This document shows, in pieces, positions 1 through 9,064 of a stretch of DNA of 9,064 bases; positions within the stretch are counted from its first letter, which is position 1, and each line of letters begins with the position of its first letter. This DNA is from a virus (Duplodnaviria > Heunggongvirae > Uroviricota > Caudoviricetes). The notes under the pieces were generated by a model, which did not search any database, was not told where the DNA came from, and saw only the letters and a list, made by a program, of their open reading frames with translations. Both the position numbers and the translations under genes were made by a program. The stretch lies in the IMG/VR virus record IMGVR_UViG_2872180393_000009; one strand, 5' to 3'.

Positions 1-303
1 TTAACGCGTATTTTTCAGCGACTCCTGTGCAAAATACGCTGTTGCTTTTTTTAATATATCTCGCTCAAGGCGAGCTTCATTTAACGCCTTACGCAGTTGC
101 AGAATTTCAGATTCCAGTTCAGCCACCGTGCGGGAACCAGGAGTACCGAGCCCTTTTCTGGCGGCGGTAACCCATTGTCCTAAAGTGTCTTCAGGAAGGG
201 ATAATCGGGAAGCGCCTTCACTGATCGAAAGTTGATTTTCAAGAACCGTTCTGACAGCTTCGGCTTTGAACTCTTTAGAGTAACGTTGGGTTTTTCTGCT
301 CAT
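1..303 (-). CDS. IS600 OrfA (IS3-family transposase N-terminal HTH protein)
   Basis: 100-aa ORF beginning MSRKTQRYSKEFKAEAV, which I recognise as IS600 OrfA. A good AGGAG Shine-Dalgarno lies upstream on the minus strand (reverse complement of 310-314). Confidence 0.9.
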   Translation of the reverse strand: MSRKTQRYSKEFKAEAVRTVLENQLSISEGASRLSLPEDTLGQWVTAARKGLGTPGSRTVAELESEILQLRKALNEARLERDILKKATAYFAQESLKNTR

Positions 304-367
304 TATTAGCTCCTTCTGATGCCATTCTATTTCAGGAAGGAGTGTCCGTTAAACTCAGGCTACCTCA
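1..367 (-). mobile_element. IS600 (IS3 family), partial copy in inverted orientation; left inverted repeat ends at 367, rest of element lies beyond the window start
   Basis: Positions 301-367 are the reverse complement of 6768-6834 (left end and orfA start of the complete copy) with one mismatch. The orfA product is identical to the 6832-7134 product except one residue (D vs G). Confidence 0.85.
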
Positions 368-600
368 ACGAAGTTGGCGTTCAGTTTGGCAGCGCGGCTG
401 AAATGGCTATTTTGCAGGAAATTATCAACGCCAGGTACGAAAGTATCTTGCCCACCATTCTGATCAGTAACCTCTCACCGGAAGAGTTGTGGGCGTTCAT
501 CAGTCCCCGAATTGCCGACAGGATCACAGACGGGGGACGCAACTGGTTGTCGTTTAACTGGCCCAGTTACCGTTCTCGTATCAGAGGTGTGGCTGCATGA
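368..600 (+). pseudogene. DnaC-like helicase loader, C-terminal remnant (about 77 codons) truncated at its 5' side by the IS600 end
   Basis: Translation NEVGVQ...LSFNWPSYRSRIRGVAA matches the C-terminus of E. coli DnaC (DEIGVQ...FNWDSYRSRVTGKEY, recalled from memory). The ORF is only open upstream because it runs into the IS inverted repeat. The stop overlaps the next gene's start (ATGA, 597-600). Confidence 0.75.
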
Positions 601-1826
601 CAACTCCAGTATGGCGTAACGATGACCTTGAAGGCGCTGTCATCGGCGCGTTCTTTCTGCGCGGAGCAGATCCTGAAGTGATGGATATTCTGGCCACACT
701 ACCGGCGGACGTTTTTTCTGTACGACCGTACCGGGATATCTACACAGGCATCTGCAGACAGGCCCGTGTGTCCGGCGTGATTGATCCTGTGCTGTTGTGC
801 AATGAGATGCCAGAACTTGCCCCGGTGATTACTGATACCGGGCGTAAAACCTGGGTGAAGTCATCTCTGGAACACTATGTTGCAGCACTGCGACGCAATG
901 CCGCACTGCGTGATGCAGAAAAAACACTGAACGAGGCATTACAGAAATTACGCGATGCGCATACCTGTGAAGCAGCTGAAGATGCTCTTAAGGATGCACA
1001 GAACATGATGGCCTCATTGTCGACGGAAAAGGGCGTTATTCAGTCGGTACATATTGATGATGTGCTTCCGGAGGTGGTTGAGCGTGTTGAATGCCGGAAT
1101 CAGGGACTGGAGAAATCCAGGACGTTGATGACCGGTATTGATGAACTGGACGCAAAAACAGGCGGCATGGAGCCCGGCGACCTGGTATTTATTGCGGCTC
1201 GTCCTTCGATGGGGAAAACCGAACTTGCGCTGGACATCATCGACAAGGTGACTGAGCAGGGGCATGGTGTGCTTCTGTTCACCATGGAGATGGCGAACAT
1301 CCAGATTGGTGAACGTATGGTGTCTGAGGCTGGAGGGATGCCAGTATCACGCCTGAAATCTGTGGCTCACTTTGAAGATGAAGACTGGGCGCGTTTCTCA
1401 CAAGGGGTGGGGCGGATGACCGGGCGCAATATCTGGATGGTGGACCAGGCGAACCTGACCATTGATGAGATATGCGCAACAACGAAACACCATCTGATTA
1501 AACATCCGGAAACGGCGCTGGTGGTGGTTGATTATCTCGGGCTGAAAAATTCCGGAGAAATAGAGGCGGATGCAGACATCATTCTGATGCTTTACAGGGA
1601 TGAAGTGTACAACCCGGATACACAGGCCACAGGCATAGCAGAAATTAATATCACGAAACAACGTAACGGTTCTCTGGGGACGATTTACCGGCGTTTTTAT
1701 AACGGACATTTTCTGCCTGTGGACCAGGAAAGCGCACAGGTTCTTTCCACCCCAATGCGGCAGCCCCAGCCGCGCAGATACAGCAATACACGTACCGACA
1801 GCAGTAAGATGGAGCGTTTCTTTTGA
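597..1826 (+). CDS. DnaB-family replicative helicase (prophage-encoded), apparently lacking the H3/H4 motif region
   Basis: 409-aa ORF with Walker A AARPSMGKT, Walker B-like VVVDYL and the conserved EDEDWAR, LYRDEVY and GIAEI..KQRNG blocks found in E. coli DnaB. About 50 residues between DYL and EIEADAD seem to be absent relative to DnaB. Confidence 0.85.
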   Translation: MTTPVWRNDDLEGAVIGAFFLRGADPEVMDILATLPADVFSVRPYRDIYTGICRQARVSGVIDPVLLCNEMPELAPVITDTGRKTWVKSSLEHYVAALRRNAALRDAEKTLNEALQKLRDAHTCEAAEDALKDAQNMMASLSTEKGVIQSVHIDDVLPEVVERVECRNQGLEKSRTLMTGIDELDAKTGGMEPGDLVFIAARPSMGKTELALDIIDKVTEQGHGVLLFTMEMANIQIGERMVSEAGGMPVSRLKSVAHFEDEDWARFSQGVGRMTGRNIWMVDQANLTIDEICATTKHHLIKHPETALVVVDYLGLKNSGEIEADADIILMLYRDEVYNPDTQATGIAEINITKQRNGSLGTIYRRFYNGHFLPVDQESAQVLSTPMRQPQPRRYSNTRTDSSKMERFF

Positions 1827-1837
1827 ACAACCAGACA

Positions 1838-2080
1838 ATGACTTTTACCCCTGAACAATTGCGTAAACACGCGCAGGAAATGTTGCGACAGGCGGAACAA
1901 CTGGAAAAAACAGGTGTAACAAAAGATGCCATTCGTCGGGATATGGTGCCAGCGCTCAGGGAACTGATGCAGGCGAAACATCGCGCACAAAAAGCGGTGG
2001 ATGAGCTCGTTGATTGTGTGGCAGAGCTGGAAACCAAAGTTGGAAAGTTTGAAAAAATGGTGCAGGAGGTGCTGCGCTGA
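1838..2080 (+). CDS. Hypothetical small phage protein (about 80 aa, charged, probably helical), nin-region position
   Basis: ORF MTFTPEQLRKHAQEMLRQAEQLEK..., tightly packed between the helicase stop (1824-1826) and the rusA start (TGATG overlap at 2078-2082). No clear Shine-Dalgarno; start could instead be TTG at 1823. No family recognised. Confidence 0.5.
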   Translation: MTFTPEQLRKHAQEMLRQAEQLEKTGVTKDAIRRDMVPALRELMQAKHRAQKAVDELVDCVAELETKVGKFEKMVQEVLR

Positions 2081-2451
2081 TGCGCCATGAGTTTATTTTA
2101 CCTTATCCGCCGACGGTGAATACTTACTGGCGACGTCGTGGCTGCACATATTTTGTATCAAAAGTTGGTGAGCGTTATCGCCGTGATGTGACGCTAATTG
2201 TTCGCCAGCAGCGGCTGAAATTAAACCTGTCCGGAAGGCTGGCGATAAAGATTATTGCAGAGCCACCGGATAAGCGCCGTCGTGACCTGGACAATATCCT
2301 GAAAGCACCACTGGATGCGCTGACGCATGCCGGACTACTCATAGACGACGAGCAGTTTGATGAAATCAATATTGTGCGCGGTCAGCTCGTTCTTGGTGGG
2401 CGACTGGGCGTGAAGATTTACGAAATCACAGGTGATAACGATGGCGCGTGA
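2080..2451 (+). CDS. rusA: RusA-family Holliday junction resolvase
   Basis: 123-aa ORF with [10 protein letters not shown], matching the RusA catalytic region (PDRRRRDLDN in E. coli RusA, from memory). Typical position between replication genes and Q in lambdoid phages. Confidence 0.9.
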
Positions 2452-2827
2452 TATTCAGCAGGTTATGGAACGGTGGGGGGCTTGGGCTGCAAACACTCAT
2501 GAAGATGTATCCTGGGCGTCGATCGCTGCTGGTTTTAAAGGGTTAATTCCGTCGAAAGTGAAATCACGCCCTCAGTGTTCTGATGATGATGCAATGATAA
2601 TTTGTGGCTGTATGGCCCGGTTGAACAAGAAAAATCAGGATTTGCACGATTTGCTGGTGGATTATTACGTAGGTGGAATGACTTTTATGAGTCTGGCACG
2701 GAAACATGGGTGTTCGGATACCTGTATTGGCAAGCGCCTGCAGAAAGCGGAAGGGGTTATTGATGGCATGTTGATGATGCTTGATATCAGGCTGGAGATG
2801 GACAGATACGTAGAACGAATTATGTAG
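2441..2827 (+). CDS. Q: Late-gene antiterminator Q (short QuuD/DLP12-type family)
   Basis: Translation [23 protein letters not shown]...[18 protein letters not shown]...[23 protein letters not shown] resembles my recollection of the ~127-aa DLP12 QuuD antiterminator. ATG at 2441 overlaps the rusA stop by 11 nt; the ORF track's GTG at 2432 is less likely. Confidence 0.8.
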
Positions 2828-2831
2828 GTGC

Positions 2832-2861
2832 TTGACCAGACACATTGTCCGGGGCTATATT
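2832..2861 (+). promoter_or_regulatory. Candidate late promoter pR' (sigma70-like TTGACC-N17/18-CTATAT/TATATT)
   Basis: TTGACC at 2832-2837 and a TATAAT-like hexamer at 2855-2861, starting 5 nt after the Q stop codon, the canonical location of pR' in lambdoid phages. Confidence 0.4.
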
Positions 2862-2922
2862 CCTCACGCGCCAGCAAAATCTGGCGTCGGGATTGGAACC
2901 CCGGATAGAGACCGCGACAGAC

Positions 2923-2945
2923 ACACGCCGCGAGCGTGTTTTTTA
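2923..2945 (+). terminator. Candidate tR'-like intrinsic terminator
   Basis: 6-bp stem ACACGC/GCGTGT (2923-2928 / 2934-2939) with a 5-nt loop, followed by a T-run (2939-2945), about 60-80 nt downstream of the candidate pR'. Confidence 0.4.
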
Positions 2946-3307
2946 TTGTCGTATGCACGCGCACATCTGAATTATGGTGGGGCGCATGGGGGAGCTGAAA
3001 AGCTCGCCGGTCGGTTTCCCGGTAGTTCCAACCCTGTGCGTCTCACCACCCGATGATTGGAACCTGACGGTGTTGACAGTTTCAGGTTTGCAGTTTACAT
3101 TTCCCCGCGGTGCTCAAAACACCTCGAAAGCGGTATCCACACCCGATAGCCATGTGGTTTTTTTGTGTCCAGAATTCTTGGTTTATGACCGGGTGTGCGG
3201 CTAATACAATACCAGCAATGGAAATACGCCCGCCGACTTTCGACGGTTTTGAGCGCCCGGTCACCCTCTCAAAAGGGGTAAATCAAAATATTCGAAAGGA
3301 CATGTCT

Positions 3308-3871
3308 ATGAATCGCACGTCTATTGAAAAACTCCCGTCACTTACGCATAACCATCTTCCTGTCATGACAACAGAGCTGCTGGCTGATTTGTACGGAACA
3401 GAGCGCCAGCGTTTGACAAACAATTTCAATCGAAACAAAGAACGGTTTATAGAAGGTAAACATTTTTTCCTGATAGAAGGTGATGCGTTACGAGAGTTGA
3501 AGAACGAAAACTCTTTAAGAGTTTCTGTGAAAATTGCCCGTAACGTTCGCTCCCTCATCCTCTGGACAGAACGTGGCGCAGCCCGTCACGCCAAAATGCT
3601 CGAAACCGATCAGGCGTGGGAAGTGTTCGAAAAACTGGAAGACTGTTATTTCAACCAGAAACAGCCACCAGCGGCACAAAACACATCTATCGAAAATGAT
3701 GGATGCGCATTACTGAGCCACTTCGATAAACACGGTCAGGTTGAGTTCACGGAAAAGGTACCCGCCGATGCGATGGTATGTACTCTGGAACGGTTTAAAT
3801 TTTATCTGGAGCAACACGGGTGGATCGTTGCCCGTAAAGAGCAACTGGTGGAGCGGTTGATGCGGTTTTAA
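3308..3871 (+). CDS. ORF6N-domain (antirepressor-like DNA-binding) protein with an uncharacterised C-terminal half
   Basis: ATG at 3308 has AAGGA 7 nt upstream. The N-terminal segment PVMTTELLADLYGTERQRLTNNFNRNKERFIEGKHFF...WTERGAARHAKMLETDQAWEVF fits my recollection of the ORF6N domain consensus. The ORF track's upstream extension from 3110 has no RBS and non-protein-like composition. Confidence 0.6.
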   Translation: MNRTSIEKLPSLTHNHLPVMTTELLADLYGTERQRLTNNFNRNKERFIEGKHFFLIEGDALRELKNENSLRVSVKIARNVRSLILWTERGAARHAKMLETDQAWEVFEKLEDCYFNQKQPPAAQNTSIENDGCALLSHFDKHGQVEFTEKVPADAMVCTLERFKFYLEQHGWIVARKEQLVERLMRF

Positions 3872-3984
3872 AAATTTTTTCCGAAAACTTTACGATCGTA
3901 AAAAGTTGAATATCCTGTTAAGAGTGGTTACTACGCCACACAGAAACGGCACAGGACGTTAAACGTGCTGGTGGTCAGATGAGT

Positions 3985-4013
3985 TTGCAGATGTGATGAC
4001 ATATGGTTATTAT
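3985..4013 (+). promoter_or_regulatory. Candidate sigma70 promoter for the tRNA array (TTGCAG-N17-TATTAT)
   Basis: TTGCAG at 3985-3990 and TATTAT at 4008-4013 with a 17-nt spacer, about 10 nt upstream of the first tRNA 5' end. Confidence 0.35.
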
Positions 4014-4022
4014 TCTGCCTCC

Positions 4023-4099
4023 GGCCCTTTAGCTCAGTTGGTCAGAGCGAGCGACTCATAATCGCCAGGTCGCTGGTTCAAGTCCAGCAAGGGCCACCA
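4023..4099 (+). tRNA. tRNA with CAU anticodon, most likely tRNA-Ile2 (ileX/ileZ-like) rather than tRNA-Met
   Basis: Cloverleaf read by eye: acceptor GGCCCTT/AAGGGCC, D-arm AGCTCAGTTGG, anticodon loop CTCATAA, T-arm GGTTCAAGTCC, 3' CCA encoded. Close to E. coli ileX as I recall it, including C4-G69 and C5-G68. Confidence 0.85.
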
Positions 4100-4100
4100 A

Positions 4101-4177
4101 CCACCACTAGCTCATCCGGATAGAGCATCAACCTTCTAAGTTGACGGTGCGAGGTTCGAGTCCTCGGTGGTGGGCCA
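4101..4177 (+). tRNA. tRNA-Arg (anticodon UCU, decodes AGA)
   Basis: Acceptor CCACCAC/GTGGTGG (unusual C1-G72), D-arm TAGCTCATCCGGATAGAGC, anticodon loop CTTCTAA, T-arm GAGGTTCGAGTCCTC, encoded CCA. Starts 1 nt after the previous tRNA. Confidence 0.8.
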
Positions 4178-4179
4178 GC

Positions 4180-4255
<76 letters not shown>

Positions 4256-4258
4256 TAT

Positions 4259-4333
<75 letters not shown>

Positions 4334-4946
4334 GCGAGATTTGAGACGAAGGTTGTTATTTGCACTGACACAATATTGTGTGGGAATGTCTGACTCCTTA
4401 CCATCTCCTGTTCTGTGATGTTGTTTTGTTGCAGTTCCAGTGCTCTTTTTTCAGCACCAGAATGGTGCATTGTCGGTCAGGTTACGTAGTGAACCTCTGG
4501 CAGGGGACTGATGATTCATCATTCTGGTGTTGTAAATATCTCTTCGGACAACTTACAAAATATTCTAAGCAAACCCCGGGAACACACTCTTAACTGCCTT
4601 GGTTGGCGGTTTTTTGTACAGTGCTCGGTATGTGTGAGCTGGAAATCAGATTTTGCATGGACTGGAATCATGCTGTTATTTAGGGGCGAAGAACTGGCTT
4701 TTTCTTCCGCCTTCTCACCAGTAATGATTAGAAAAATAATGAAATGCCCCCTCCGGGGAGGAGGACCGTAGAAAAAAGGACCCGCCAGCAAAAACATTGG
4801 GGATGAACAGCTTTCGCTACTCAGATTGCTGGCGGGTAAAGTTCCTCATGAATTAAGAATGCTACGCGATCTTTTTTAATGGAAATGAAAATTATTGTCA
4901 ATTAGACGTGCGTGTTTTTTCATACAATATTGGTAAAGGTGATTCA

Positions 4947-4980
4947 GGCCATCAGAGTTTTGCTGATGGCCTTTTTTCTT
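4947..4980 (+). terminator. Strong rho-independent terminator upstream of the holin gene
   Basis: Perfect 9-bp stem GGCCATCAG/CTGATGGCC (4947-4955 / 4963-4971), 7-nt loop, followed by TTTTTTCTT (4972-4980). Confidence 0.6.
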
Positions 4981-5013
4981 TCCGATAGCACAGGTCTGTC
5001 GGGGGGGCGGGAT

Positions 5014-5229
5014 ATGTATCAGATGGAAAAAATATCAACAGGCATTGCCTACGGCACCTCCGCCGGCAGTGCCGGCTACTGGTTTTTGCAGTGGTTGGAT
5101 CAGGTCAGTCCGTCACAGTGGGCTGCGATTGGTGTGCTGGGAAGTCTGCTTCTGGGGCTTCTGACTTATCTGACGAATCTGTATTTCAAAATAAGAGAAG
5201 ATAAGCGTAAGGCTGCGAGAGGTGAATAA
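5014..5229 (+). CDS. S: Class II holin / pinholin, phage 21 S-like, with dual-start motif (Met1 at 5014, Met4 at 5023)
   Basis: 71-aa product [71 protein letters not shown] is near-identical to my recollection of phage 21 S. G-rich Shine-Dalgarno-like stretch upstream; stop overlaps the endolysin start (TAATG). Confidence 0.85.
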
Positions 5230-5726
5230 TGTCGCCATCATTACGCAAGGCTGTTGCAGTTGCTATTGGTGGCGGGGCTGTTGCTATAGCATCTGTGTTA
5301 ATCACTGGCCCAGGTGGTAACGATGGTCTGGAAGGTGTCAGCTACATACCATACAAAGATATCATTGGTGTATGGACTGTATGTCACGGACACACCGGAA
5401 AAGACATCATGCCTGGTAAAACGTATACCGAAGCAGAATGCAAAGCTCTCCTGAATAAAGACCTTGCCACTGTCGCCAGACAAATTAACCCGTACATCAA
5501 AGTCGATATACCGGAAACAACGCGCGGCGCTCTTTACTCGTTCGTTTACAACGTGGGCGCTGGCAATTTCAGAACATCGACGCTTCTTCGCAAAATAAAC
5601 CAGGGCGATATCAAAGGCGCATGTGACCAGCTACGTCGCTGGACATATGCTGGCGGTAAGCAATGGAAAGGGCTGATGACCCGTCGTGAGATTGAGCGTG
5701 AAGTCTGTTTGTGGGGGCTGCAATGA
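5229..5726 (+). CDS. R: SAR (signal-anchor-release) endolysin, phage 21 R-like lysozyme
   Basis: 165-aa product with an N-terminal Gly/Ala-rich SAR helix ([20 protein letters not shown]) and a T4-lysozyme-like catalytic region ([22 protein letters not shown]). Near-identical to phage 21 R as recalled. Confidence 0.9.
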
Positions 5727-6187
5727 GCAGAGTCACCGCGATTATCTCCGCTCTGGTTATCTGCATCATCGTCTGCCTGTCATGGGCTGTTAATCATTAC
5801 CGTGATAACGCCATTACCTACAAAGAGCAGCGCGACAAAAACGCAAGAGAACTGAAGCTGGCGAACGCAACCATTACTGACATGCAGCAGAGACAGCGTG
5901 ATGTTAATGCACTCGATGCTAAATACACGAAGGAGTTAGCTGATGCGAAAGCTGAAAATGAAACTCTGCGCGCTGATGTTGCCGCTGGTCGTCGTCGGTT
6001 GCACATCAAAGCAGTCTGTCAGTCAGTGCGTGAAGCCACCACCGCCTCCGGCGTGGATAATGCAACCAGCCCCCGACTGGCAGACACCGCTGAACGGGAT
6101 TATTTCACCCTCAGAGAGCGGCTGATGACGATGCAGATGCAACTGGAAGGGGCACAGGAGTATATCCGCACTCAGTGCATTAAGTAG
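5723..6187 (+). CDS. Rz: Rz i-spanin (inner membrane spanin subunit)
   Basis: [34 protein letters not shown]... is highly similar to lambda Rz as recalled. ATG at 5723 overlaps the endolysin stop (ATGA). Confidence 0.9.
5943..6125 (+). CDS. Rz1: Rz1 o-spanin (outer membrane lipoprotein), embedded in the +1 frame of Rz
   Basis: 60-aa [45 protein letters not shown]... with lipobox VVGC and a proline-rich segment, similar to lambda Rz1 as recalled. Confidence 0.85.
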
Positions 6188-6229
6188 CCTTTTTATCGTG
6201 GTAAACATTTCGCAGGGTATGAGGTATTT

Positions 6230-6580
6230 ATGCCATCACTAATCCCACGTGCCTGCCGTAAGCGTGGATGTGCAGGTACAACCACAGACAGTTCGGGTTA
6301 CTGCGATAAACATCGCGGTGAAGGCTGGGTGCAGCACCAGCGCGGACTGAGCCGCCACCAGCGTGGCTATGGCTCAAAATGGACGGTGATTCGTGCCCGT
6401 ATTCTGAAGCGCGATAAAGGTCTGTGTCAGTTGTGTCTGCGTGTCGGTGTGGTGAGCGAGGCGAAAACCGTCGACCACATCATCCCGAAAGCGCATGGCG
6501 GAACAGACGCAGACAGCAACCTGCAGAGTCTGTGCTGGCCCTGCCATAAAGCGAAAACAGCGCGCGAACGAATCAGGTGA
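6230..6580 (+). CDS. HNH endonuclease (phage packaging-associated type)
   Basis: 116-aa ORF with Cys pairs (CRKRGC, CQLC, CWPC) and the HNH core DHIIPKAHGGTDADSNLQSLCWPCH. GAGG Shine-Dalgarno 5 nt upstream. Sits just before the putative cos/terS region as in HK97-like phages. Confidence 0.8.
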   Translation: MPSLIPRACRKRGCAGTTTDSSGYCDKHRGEGWVQHQRGLSRHQRGYGSKWTVIRARILKRDKGLCQLCLRVGVVSEAKTVDHIIPKAHGGTDADSNLQSLCWPCHKAKTARERIR

Positions 6581-6602
6581 TAATTATTCTCACTTGTAGG
6601 GA

Positions 6603-6651
6603 GGGGCGGGGCAAATCCCTGTGACCTGACGTCTTCCGGACTGCCCGCCCC
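6603..6651. repeat. GC-rich dyad GGGGCGGG ... CCCGCCCC with 33-nt spacer; candidate cos/packaging recognition element
   Basis: 8-bp perfect inverted repeat at 6603-6610 and 6644-6651, located between the HNH gene and the terS start. Assignment as cos is positional inference only. Confidence 0.3.
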
Positions 6652-6695
6652 GTCAAATTTTTACACCCGCGAAATTAAAAATTTCAGGATTTGAC

Positions 6696-6767
6696 ATGTC
6701 AGGAAAATCTGTTGCACCCGGAAGGGGAAGAAAGCCGAAGCCGACTACCCGTAAGGAGCTGGCAGGC
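6696..6767 (+). pseudogene. Terminase small subunit (P27-family-like) N-terminal 24 codons, truncated by the IS600 insertion
   Basis: ATG at 6696 encodes MSGKSVAPGRGRKPKPTTRKELAG, ending exactly at the IS600 left inverted repeat, whose first triplet TGA gives an immediate stop. The GRGRKPKPT motif is typical of P27-type TerS N-termini as recalled. Confidence 0.5.
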
Positions 6768-6831
6768 TGAGGTAGCCTGAGTTTAACGGACACTCCTTCC
6801 TGAAATAGAATGGCATCAGAAGAAGCTAATA

Positions 6832-7134
6832 ATGAGCAGAAAAACCCAACGTTACTCTAAAGAGTTCAAAGCCGAAGCTGTCAGAACGGTTCTTGAAAAT
6901 CAACTTTCGATCAGTGAAGGCGCTTCCCGATTATCCCTTCCTGAAGGCACTTTAGGACAATGGGTTACCGCCGCCAGAAAAGGGCTCGGTACTCCTGGTT
7001 CCCGCACGGTGGCTGAACTGGAATCTGAAATTCTGCAACTGCGTAAGGCGTTAAATGAAGCTCGCCTTGAGCGAGATATATTAAAAAAAGCAACAGCGTA
7101 TTTTGCACAGGAGTCGCTGAAAAATACGCGTTAA
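6832..7134 (+). CDS. IS600 OrfA
   Basis: 100-aa ORF MSRKTQRYSKEFKAEAVRTVLENQLSISEGASRLSLPEG..., with an HTH-like N-terminus and a leucine-zipper-like C-terminus typical of IS3-family OrfA. Confidence 0.9.
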   Translation: MSRKTQRYSKEFKAEAVRTVLENQLSISEGASRLSLPEGTLGQWVTAARKGLGTPGSRTVAELESEILQLRKALNEARLERDILKKATAYFAQESLKNTR

Positions 7135-7169
7135 TCGAACAATGGCGACAACAATTTCCCATTGAAGCG

Positions 7170-7988
7170 ATGTGTCAGGTATTTGGTGTATCCAGGAGCG
7201 GTTATTACAACCGGGTACAGCATGAACCCTCAGACAGAAAACAAAGTGATGAGCGGCTAAAACTGGAGATTAAGGTGGCACATATCCGCACTCGCGAAAC
7301 ATATGGAACCCGGCGGCTCCAGACGGAGCTGGCAGAGAATGGCATCATCGTTGGTCGTGACCGACTGGCACGTCTTCGTAAGGAGCTAAGGCTACGCTGT
7401 AAGCAGAAACGCAAGTTCAGAGCGACTACGAACCCGAACCACAATCTGCCAGTTGCGCCAAATCTGCTGAACCAGACGTTCGCTCCTACAGCACCAAATC
7501 AGGTCTGGGTGGCGGACCTGACGTATGTTGCCACACAGGAGGGATGGTTGTACCTCGCTGGCATCAAAGATGTTTATACGTGCGAAATTGTCGGCTACGC
7601 CATGGGAGAGCGCATGACAAAAGAGCTGACAGGTAAAGCCCTGTTTATGGCGCTCAGGAGCCAGCGCCCACCTGCCGGGCTAATCCACCACTCTGATCGA
7701 GGTTCACAGTACTGCGCATACGATTACCGGGTCATACAGGAGCAGTTTGGTCTGAAAACATCAATGTCGCGTAAAGGTAACTGTTACGACAACGCTCCGA
7801 TGGAAAGCTTCTGGGGAACGCTGAAAAATGAGAGCCTGAGCCACTATCGTTTTAATAACCGGGATGAAGCCATCTCAGTAATACGGGAATACATTGAGAT
7901 TTTCTACAATCGTCAGCGTCGTCACTCTCGTCTGGGGAATATCTCCCCGGCAGCCTTCAGGGAAAAATATCATCAGATGGCTGCTTAA
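7170..7988 (+). CDS. IS600 OrfB (transposase catalytic DDE domain), normally expressed as an OrfAB fusion by -1 frameshifting
   Basis: 272-aa ORF containing DDE-region motifs (WVADLTYV, HHSDRGSQY, CYDNAPMESFWGTLKNE). The orfB frame is open upstream from the A AAA AAA G slippery run at 7083-7090 inside orfA. Confidence 0.9.
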   Translation: MCQVFGVSRSGYYNRVQHEPSDRKQSDERLKLEIKVAHIRTRETYGTRRLQTELAENGIIVGRDRLARLRKELRLRCKQKRKFRATTNPNHNLPVAPNLLNQTFAPTAPNQVWVADLTYVATQEGWLYLAGIKDVYTCEIVGYAMGERMTKELTGKALFMALRSQRPPAGLIHHSDRGSQYCAYDYRVIQEQFGLKTSMSRKGNCYDNAPMESFWGTLKNESLSHYRFNNRDEAISVIREYIEIFYNRQRRHSRLGNISPAAFREKYHQMAA

Positions 7989-8098
7989 AAAAAGAACAAA
8001 TGGTAGTATCCGCTATTGCCAGTACACCTCAAAGGGGTTCATGTATTAAAAGTCGACGGAGTTAAAGAACGTTGGGTCGACTTAATGGAGATTTCAAA

Positions 8099-9064
8099 AT
8101 GGGCAAGAAAGAACAAGGATCATTACCTCTCCCAAGAGGAGTAACTATTCGTCAATACAAGAATTGCTCTACATTAGTTGTAACCTTCACATATAAAGGG
8201 GTTCTTTGCAGAGAACCCTTACCAAGGCTGGAAGCTAACGCAAAGGGGATTAAGTATGCAGAGCGACTTCTCGGAGAAATAAAAAACCAAATCTGTGATG
8301 ATTCATTCGATTTTTCAAAATACTTTCCAAACTCCAGGAAGTTAGCATTATTTGGAATGGTAAAGAAGAATAAAAGTGTGAGAGATTACCTAGATGAATA
8401 TCTGGAAATTTGCAAAAACAGAAAGTTATCTCCTTCAACAATAAATGGATATGAAAAATGCGTATCTGCATTATCGGAACTACATAAGCTACATGTCGTT
8501 GACCTGACACCAGCAATATTAAAAAAATGGATTTCAAGAAGAACAACAAAACTTAAGACCATAAGAAACAATCTGTCATTTTTAAGAAGCGCAGTAGATG
8601 AAGCGGTCACTGACGGACTTATAACGATAAATCCTGTAAAACTGGTTAGTGCAAGTAGATACCATGCGGTTAACCATACAGCCAATGCTGATGATTATGA
8701 AGTGGATCCCTTCACGCCAGCAGAGGCAACAGCTATCTACAACGCCTGTCTCTATCAGGAATGGAGAAATCTTTTTTGTTTCGCATTCAATACAGGCCTT
8801 CGAAGCTCAGAATTATGTGCATTGCGTTGGTCTGATATTGATTTTATTGGGCATACCGTTCACGTACAGGTCGCTTCTGTCGTTGGTGTAATAAAAGGAA
8901 CCAAAACAAAAGCAGGGACCAGAAAAGTTGAATTAAACAATGAAGCCATAATGGCATTGCAGTCCCAGAAATCATTTACGATGATGAGAAGTGATTTTGT
9001 ATTCAGTGATCCAAAAACACGCAAGCCGTGGGCTAATTCAGCTGCGATTCGCAAGAAAGCCTGA
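8099..9064 (+). CDS. int: Tyrosine recombinase / phage integrase, probably C-terminally truncated (likely pseudogene)
   Basis: ATG at 8099 with GGAG 8 nt upstream. N-terminal arm-binding-like segment (LPRGVTIRQY...TFTYKGVLCREPLP), box I arginine (FNTGLRSSELCALRWSDIDF) and the KGTKTKAGTRKVEL hairpin are present. The ORF stops 17 aa after FVFSDP, before the expected HxxR and catalytic Tyr. AT-rich relative to the rest of the window. Confidence 0.7.
   Translation: MGKKEQGSLPLPRGVTIRQYKNCSTLVVTFTYKGVLCREPLPRLEANAKGIKYAERLLGEIKNQICDDSFDFSKYFPNSRKLALFGMVKKNKSVRDYLDEYLEICKNRKLSPSTINGYEKCVSALSELHKLHVVDLTPAILKKWISRRTTKLKTIRNNLSFLRSAVDEAVTDGLITINPVKLVSASRYHAVNHTANADDYEVDPFTPAEATAIYNACLYQEWRNLFCFAFNTGLRSSELCALRWSDIDFIGHTVHVQVASVVGVIKGTKTKAGTRKVELNNEAIMALQSQKSFTMMRSDFVFSDPKTRKPWANSAAIRKKA

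Follow-up and report, generated by a model that had tools for sequence, protein, structure and literature searches.

Organization of the locus

The window, by which we mean the whole 9,064-nucleotide stretch of DNA analysed here, is identical to positions 1903–10966 of the source locus (L002), which itself spans positions 3888236–3909201 of CP026846.1. The chromosome appears to be of Shigella boydii type, a label taken from the source name of an identical full-length protein (P0127, described below). A literature search by accession found no publication for CP026846. Toward its right end, the window carries an insertion sequence, part of an excisionase gene (xis) and an integrase gene (int) whose reading frame closes on the very last base. 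These features are as follows.

6768–8031, plus strand: IS600, 1264 bp, with terminal repeats TGAGGTAGCC... and ...CCAGTACACCTCA and with orfA/orfB
8032–8144, plus strand: 3′ remnant of xis, 36 codons and a stop at 8142–8144, its frame in phase with base 8031
8050–8083, no strand: inverted repeat, AAGTCGAC at 8050–8057 and GTCGACTT at 8076–8083 with an 18-nt spacer
8099–9064, plus strand: integrase pseudogene, the 5′ 82% of the gene, with ATG at 8099, 321 codons and a premature TGA at 9062–9064
8132–8338, plus strand: arm-type DNA-binding domain, residues 12–80
8378–8641, plus strand: core-binding (SAM-like) domain, residues 94–181
8714–9061, plus strand: first half of the catalytic domain, residues 206–321, ending before Tyr337-x-x-Arg340, His363 and Tyr373

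A program-made list of open reading frames starts the integrase at TTG 8072 rather than at ATG 8099. For comparison we used three sister chromosomes (L011, CP026845.1; L012, JARKNR010000001.1; L013, CP026877.1), all of which encode P0127, and a prophage of Escherichia coli (L001, NZ_CP045712.1) with 95% nucleotide identity. Complete E. coli genomes hold no copy above 95% identity, and phage records hold none above 73%. An exact search with the 33 nt at the end of the reading frame found no match among contigs representing one genome per species, where Shigella is presumably included only under E. coli.

The integrase reading frame ends within the catalytic domain

The N-terminal part of the 321-residue product matches the arm-binding profile PF12167 (Arm-DNA-bind_2) from end to end (profile positions 1–65 of 65, E = 1.9e-17). 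It is followed by a core-binding domain that scores above the cut-offs of PF13102 and PF14659 and that also aligns to the core-binding region of lambda Int (PDB 1z1g and 1p7d). The product thus combines the N-terminal arm domain and the SAM-like core-binding domain that are features of integrases of the DUF3596, or PF12167, type. It has at least 1538 homologues at E ≤ 1e-10 and, among the best-scoring matches listed, these are mostly about 390 residues long.

The catalytic domain is represented by its first half. Against the Phage_integrase profile (PF00589, cut-off 27.1 bits) the 321 residues score 42.5 bits and cover profile positions 4–99 of 172; the reconstructed protein of 390 residues, in which the stop is read as tryptophan, scores 68.8 bits over positions 4–165. 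The box I arginine is R235 (codon 8801–8803, within TGLRSSE) and the lysine of the β-hairpin is K269 (codon 8903–8905, within GTKTKAG), and both are present in the 321 residues. Alignments to Tn1549 Int and to the family place no equivalent of the second arginine, the second histidine or the tyrosine nucleophile within these 321 residues.

The initial annotation had recognized an arm-binding N-terminus, the box I arginine and the lysine hairpin, and had placed the end of the reading frame ahead of box II and the catalytic tyrosine. The PF12167 match, R235 and K269 bear out the first part, and R340, H363 and Y373 are encoded only past the TGA. An alignment to Phage_integrase, which the annotation had named as the way to check this, likewise leaves box II and the catalytic tyrosine outside the 321 residues. 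Of the hallmarks of a tyrosine recombinase, the product retains the box I arginine and the lysine and lacks the box II motif (H/Y)-x-x-R, the second histidine and the tyrosine. Judged by its sequence, the reading frame belongs to the tyrosine recombinase family by descent, as a pseudogene, and not as a functional member.

A single base change separates the pseudogene from a full-length allele

Past the TGA the same frame stays open for 68 sense codons (IPTLKKAGVRYRNPYQTRHTFATQHISQGANLFWLAGQMGHKGPEMLFRHYGSYLSEYDGKTAISKVI) and then reaches a stop. In the source locus this continuation lies at 10967–11173, and it carries Y337-Q-T-R340-H341, H363 and Y373, the very residues that the truncated product lacks. 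The lesion is a single G-to-A transition that turns TGG into TGA at codon 322 (Trp322, hence W322*). The mutated base is 9064, the last of the window, where the source has A and the sisters have G. The E. coli prophage has TGG at codon 322 and is annotated with a 390-residue site-specific integrase after an overlapping excisionase gene. P0127 (390 residues, source name Shigella boydii) is identical at 390 of 390 positions to the reconstructed protein with tryptophan at 322, which amounts to 100% identity over the 389 residues shared once the stop is read as Trp. Both the continuation and the sister allele are direct observations.

The initial annotation had proposed reading beyond 9064 to see whether the catalytic region was absent or resumed in another frame, and neither is the case. 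Loss of this region by deletion, frameshift or a second insertion might have been expected at a locus where truncation by insertion sequences is common, with the end of IS600 68 nt before the int start codon and, about 1.2 kb downstream, an element of the IS110 family. Counter to this, the 207 nt past the stop are colinear with the full-length relatives, free of gaps and in frame, complete with the tyrosine, arginine and histidine residues named above. Because the catalytic region continues intact in the same frame past the TGA, it was neither deleted nor frameshifted, and we consider such a loss extremely improbable.

The initial annotation had also allowed that the stop might be a sequencing or assembly artefact. 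The position of the TGA invites this suspicion, as it coincides with the end of the window, where the mutated base is the final letter, which could also point to an effect of where the window was cut; the real gene would then be intact. An exact look-up of the 321-residue protein found it on eight contigs, from two NCBI assemblies (one complete chromosome and one draft) and from six Logan assemblies of separate runs, some of whose contigs are seen in up to 12 samples. All eight carry the TGA followed by AATTCCGACG. We therefore regard an error at this position as next to impossible. The window most likely stops at 9064 because a called gene ends there.

The W322* mutation is recent, because none of the 68 codons past it is damaged and only 3 nt set the gene apart from the full-length sister allele. 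Across the xis remnant, int and the attachment site, 4 of 1587 nt distinguish the source from its sisters: three differences fall in the int frame (two synonymous ones and base 9064) and the fourth in the attachment core. The 68 downstream codons differ from those of the sisters by one synonymous base and from those of the 95% identical relative by eight synonymous and two non-synonymous codons. As a separate observation, G-to-A changes account for three of the four differences between source and sisters in these 1.6 kb.

Catalytic residues of the family and predicted loss of activity

We aligned 25 full-length members of the family, which are 64–97% identical. Invariant among them are W322, the tryptophan lost in the source, together with R235, K269, Y337, Q338, T339, R340, H341, H363 and Y373. 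Position 372 is His or Asn. The best match of solved structure is the integrase of Tn1549 (PDB 6en0, 6emy and 6emz), which aligns in 6en0 to residues 142–374 of the reconstructed protein (E = 9e-11). It is a distant relative, the integrase of a conjugative transposon without the PF12167 arm domain. The positions of the first arginine, the lysine, the second arginine and the histidine nevertheless align. K269, R340 and H363 pair with identical residues, and R235 pairs with an arginine that is replaced by lysine in one PDB construct. We take the positions of R235, K269, R340 and H363 to be catalytic positions of a tyrosine recombinase.

The nucleophile aligns one residue off. In the ungapped alignment to 6en0, the tyrosine of Tn1549 Int (Phe in one PDB construct) falls on His372, one residue before Tyr373. 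We considered whether the nucleophile is missing from the whole family, with His372 at its place, and rejected this, since the tyrosine at 373 never changes in the family alignment, unlike the His or Asn at 372. On the same grounds, Tyr373 is taken as the probable nucleophile, giving a His-to-Tyr spacing of 10 instead of 9. As a trait of the family within residues 337–373 (source locus 11009–11119), Tyr-Gln-Thr-Arg stands in place of the canonical His-x-x-Arg.

With Arg340, His363 and the nucleophile Tyr373 all missing, we infer from the established mechanism of tyrosine recombinases that the 321-residue product cannot cleave or rejoin DNA. This agrees with the initial annotation, which had called the integrase probably inactive. 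Such a fragment might nonetheless be produced and could retain binding to arm or core sites.

IS600 interrupts the excisionase gene

The first base with homology to the E. coli prophage is 8032, which adjoins the right end of IS600 and corresponds to base 104 of an annotated excisionase gene of 216 nt, and the 5′ 103 nt of xis are missing. IS600 is therefore a true boundary, as the initial annotation had drawn it. The remnant matches phrog_2917 (excisionase, PHROGs) over profile positions 38–72 of 72 (E = 3.3e-17). Translated, window positions 8031–8141 read KGVHVLKVDGVKERWVDLMEISKWARKNKDHYLSQEE, which shares 70% identity with the C-terminal half of intact Xis. The remnant overlaps the start of int just as xis does in the intact relative. 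Pfam and NCBIfam gave no match for the excisionase or for its remnant. A reading frame of 42 codons (8016–8144) starts at a TTG inside the right inverted repeat of IS600 and runs in frame into the remnant; by its sequence it could give a hybrid peptide of insertion sequence and excisionase.

What the initial annotation had described as the leader of int is thus what IS600 left of xis, its 3′ half, and the palindrome reported there lies within codons. The left arm (8050–8057) and the 18-nt spacer were correct as given; the right arm lies at 8076–8083 and not, as had been reported, at 8077–8084. The palindrome consists of two SalI-type GTCGAC hexamers, which are Val-Asp codon pairs in the xis frame (KVDG...WVDL). 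At this site the E. coli relative has AATGTGGA...GGATTGATTT, read as NVEG and WIDL, with no inverted repeat.

The palindrome had been put forward as an operator or a site related to attachment. As a protein-binding site it would be either an operator or an Int, Xis or IHF site of the att region. Arguing for such a site are its perfect 8-nt inverted arms, their 18-nt spacing and its place just upstream of the int start; a specified 68-nt stretch of this composition would contain one or more repeats of this kind with a probability of about 0.015, a post hoc figure. Over the 1033 nt from 8032 to 9064, however, one perfect 8-nt inverted repeat with a spacer of at most 30 was observed against 0.58 ± 0.96 expected under Markov resampling, which is chance level. 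In addition, the repeat sits in the coding frame of xis as two GTC-GAC pairs, the 95% identical relative has other codons there, and the attachment core and P arm lie downstream of int, away from the palindrome. We consider a role in protein binding most improbable.

The initial annotation had further noted that the DNA after IS600 is richer in AT than the prophage genes and had suggested a different origin for it. The difference in composition is real, with a GC content of 0.389 at 8032–9064 compared with 0.498 at 1–6767 and 0.491 in IS600. It does not by itself mark a foreign origin, because the xis-int module of the E. coli prophage, which is intact, is equally low in GC (0.395, next to early genes at 0.45–0.49). 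Low GC is intrinsic to the xis-int module and is not in itself proof of another origin to the right of IS600.

The prophage is integrated at the 3′ end of ssrA

The downstream core repeat that the initial annotation had proposed to look for exists and lies outside the window. The core, GGGTTCAACTCCCACCAGCTCCACCA, is at 11308–11333 of the source locus, about 135 nt past the true int stop. In the form GGGTTCAACTCCC(A/G)CCAGCTCCACCA it corresponds to the last 26 nt of ssrA, the tmRNA gene, of E. coli K-12. The source matches at 25 of 26 positions, and the sisters and E. coli at 26 of 26. The mismatch is a source-specific G-to-A change at 11321 (CCCACC versus CCCGCC). A covariance model of tmRNA gives a weak match over the core.

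The DNA past the core is the flank found to the right of CP4-57 in K-12, near-identical from the core onward; it includes psaA, a pseudo-ssrA fragment, as well as the 3′ end of ypjA. Core and flank are observed directly, and together they are the true attR of a prophage integrated at ssrA. No tmRNA gene was found within 10 kb on either side, and intact ssrA and attL were not located. Lambdoid prophages at ssrA are known from STEC, and reports describe cases in which they have lost int (PMC7067040, PMC8112680).

Beside attR, a ypjA-like autotransporter gene (source locus 11494–17520) is split by an IS110-family element into a 139-residue Autotransporter fragment and a frame of 1389 residues. 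All six Logan short-read contigs end at 11513, in the 3′ region of ypjA, and this shared end suggests a repeat boundary.

Full-length integrases of 390 residues occur in ssrA prophages of S. boydii and E. coli (cluster P0001/P0127, e.g. WP_086218968.1, E. coli FHI_NMBU_11). Their loci and the source share an overlapping xis upstream, a P arm and a core from the ssrA 3′ end downstream. The source differs in having TGA in place of TGG at codon 322, an xis cut by IS600 and one G-to-A mismatch in the core. The cryptic prophage CP4-57 of E. coli K-12 (IntA, attL in ssrA, attR at psaA) occupies the same chromosomal locus. Its integrase is of P4 type and lies next to ssrA at the other end, whereas the source element is lambdoid and carries an unrelated integrase of the DUF3596 type at the end near ypjA.

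The layout also resembles that of lambda Int, Xis and attP. In both, the integrase is made of an arm-binding N-terminal domain, a core-binding domain and a catalytic domain, xis overlaps int, and int adjoins the attachment site; lambda Int chains in the PDB match residues 93–248 of the source integrase. In contrast to lambda, the arm domain of the source is PF12167, Tyr-Gln-Thr-Arg replaces His-x-x-Arg in its family, the His-to-Tyr spacing is 10 and not 9, the target is the 3′ end of ssrA and not attB-lambda, and the gene is dead. Among the traits of a lambdoid int-xis-att module, an xis that lies upstream and overlaps int is present, and an attachment core with its native flank is present outside the window. 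An int opposed to the replication, Q and lysis genes is found in the three sisters and not in the source.

Recombination between IS600 copies inverted the adjoining segment

The insertion sequence has Pfam matches to HTH_Tnp_1 and rve, and the matching E. coli DNA is annotated as 'IS3-like element IS600 family transposase'. Its right end cuts xis and its left end cuts a short reading frame that begins at 6697. This short frame (6697–6767, MSGKSVAPGRGRKPKPTTRKELAG) starts just past the HNH endonuclease gene. Judged by where it lies, it could encode the N-terminus of a small terminase subunit, which is a guess only; its 23 residues have no PHROG match.

The source locus carries two inverted IS600 copies, one at 1006–2269 on the minus strand and one at 8670–9933, which is window 6768–8031, on the plus strand. 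The window begins inside the left copy, and its positions 1–8031 fall within the segment 1006–9933. Between the copies lies phage DNA from DnaB to HNH, plus the cut frame at 6697. Within this segment, ARAGORN finds four tRNA genes at window positions 4023–4333, Met(CAT), Arg(TCT), Thr(TGT) and Gly(TCC), between Q and the lysis genes. Lambdoid phages of the Stx type carry their tRNA genes at this place, after the antiterminator Q and before lysis.

Like int, DnaB, RusA, Q, holin, lysozyme, Rz and HNH all lie on the plus strand of the window. In the sisters the same segment is on the opposite strand, in a lambda-like order. The 15-nt flanks at the inner ends of IS600 are exact reverse complements, swapped between source and sisters, and the segment itself is about 99% identical. 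On the strength of the gene orders, the swapped flanks and this identity, the source carries an inversion produced by recombination between the two inverted IS600 copies. The initial annotation had remarked that int runs in the same direction as the late genes, unlike in lambda. That is correct for the source, but the arrangement is secondary, and the sisters retain a lambda-like one.

A target duplication might have told which arrangement is ancestral, but neither has one: there is no 3-bp duplication here (flanks GGC/AAG) or at the partner copy (CAC/ACG), and none in the sister arrangement either. Later recombination or deletion at the IS600 copies would be compatible with this. As neither arrangement shows a duplication, earlier deletions mediated by insertion sequences must also have occurred. 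Source and sisters alike lack all that would lie between the replication genes and mid-xis.

Discussion

We interpret this locus as the int-proximal end of a degraded lambdoid prophage at ssrA, in which xis was cut by IS600, int was inactivated by the nonsense mutation W322* and an adjoining segment was inverted between IS600 copies (probability roughly 0.94). A lambdoid prophage had integrated into the 3′ end of ssrA, with an original layout that ran from xis through the overlapping int and the P arm to the 26-nt ssrA-3′ core (attR) and the chromosomal flank with ypjA. Two lesions inactivated the recombination module. IS600 removed the first 103 nt of xis, and a G-to-A transition turned Trp322 of int from TGG into TGA, so that translation ends after 321 residues. 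These still comprise the domains for arm and core binding along with the first half of the catalytic domain (including Arg235 and Lys269). The remnant would thereby be locked in place. Homologous recombination between the inverted IS600 copies flipped the segment, leaving int co-oriented with Q and the lysis genes. Although the inversion is seen directly, the order of these events is our inference.

Alternatively, the allele may still be functional, either through read-through of the UGA or through a 321-residue fragment that binds arm or core sites in a dominant-negative or regulatory role. The tRNA for tryptophan is a near-cognate reader of UGA, and it would insert Trp, which is the ancestral residue. 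The 68 downstream codons bear no further lesion, and the DNA-binding domains are intact. Counter to this, with xis truncated and the prophage scrambled by IS600, excision would lack its partner functions. An intact 3′ part is expected from a very recent mutation, which makes selection unnecessary as an explanation, and conservation of the truncated form is not evidenced outside one lineage. Half a catalytic domain likely misfolds. We therefore judge a functional allele to be very unlikely, and prefer a degraded prophage end with an inactivated integrase.

The more specific proposal, that occasional decoding of UGA 322 by tRNA-Trp would yield the exact wild-type integrase of 390 residues and make the mutation a leaky knock-down and not a null, is slightly less probable still. 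If it were true, there might be a trickle of Int activity at the attR in ssrA, or an abundant 321-residue fragment that competes at arm sites. Read-through would be of little consequence with xis gone.

Taken as a whole, the locus records ordinary gene decay, and its value is mainly one of annotation. The correct annotation is 'integrase pseudogene (W322*)' and not a short integrase. Where a reading frame closes on the final base of an analysed stretch, it should be followed further in its source genome. As a general lesson, a seeming leader ahead of an integrase gene usually turns out to be the excisionase gene. Beyond this, the locus is a clear and dated case of prophage remnants becoming fixed in a Shigella-type genome, here through a point nonsense mutation in int, the IS600 cut in xis and an inversion mediated by IS600.
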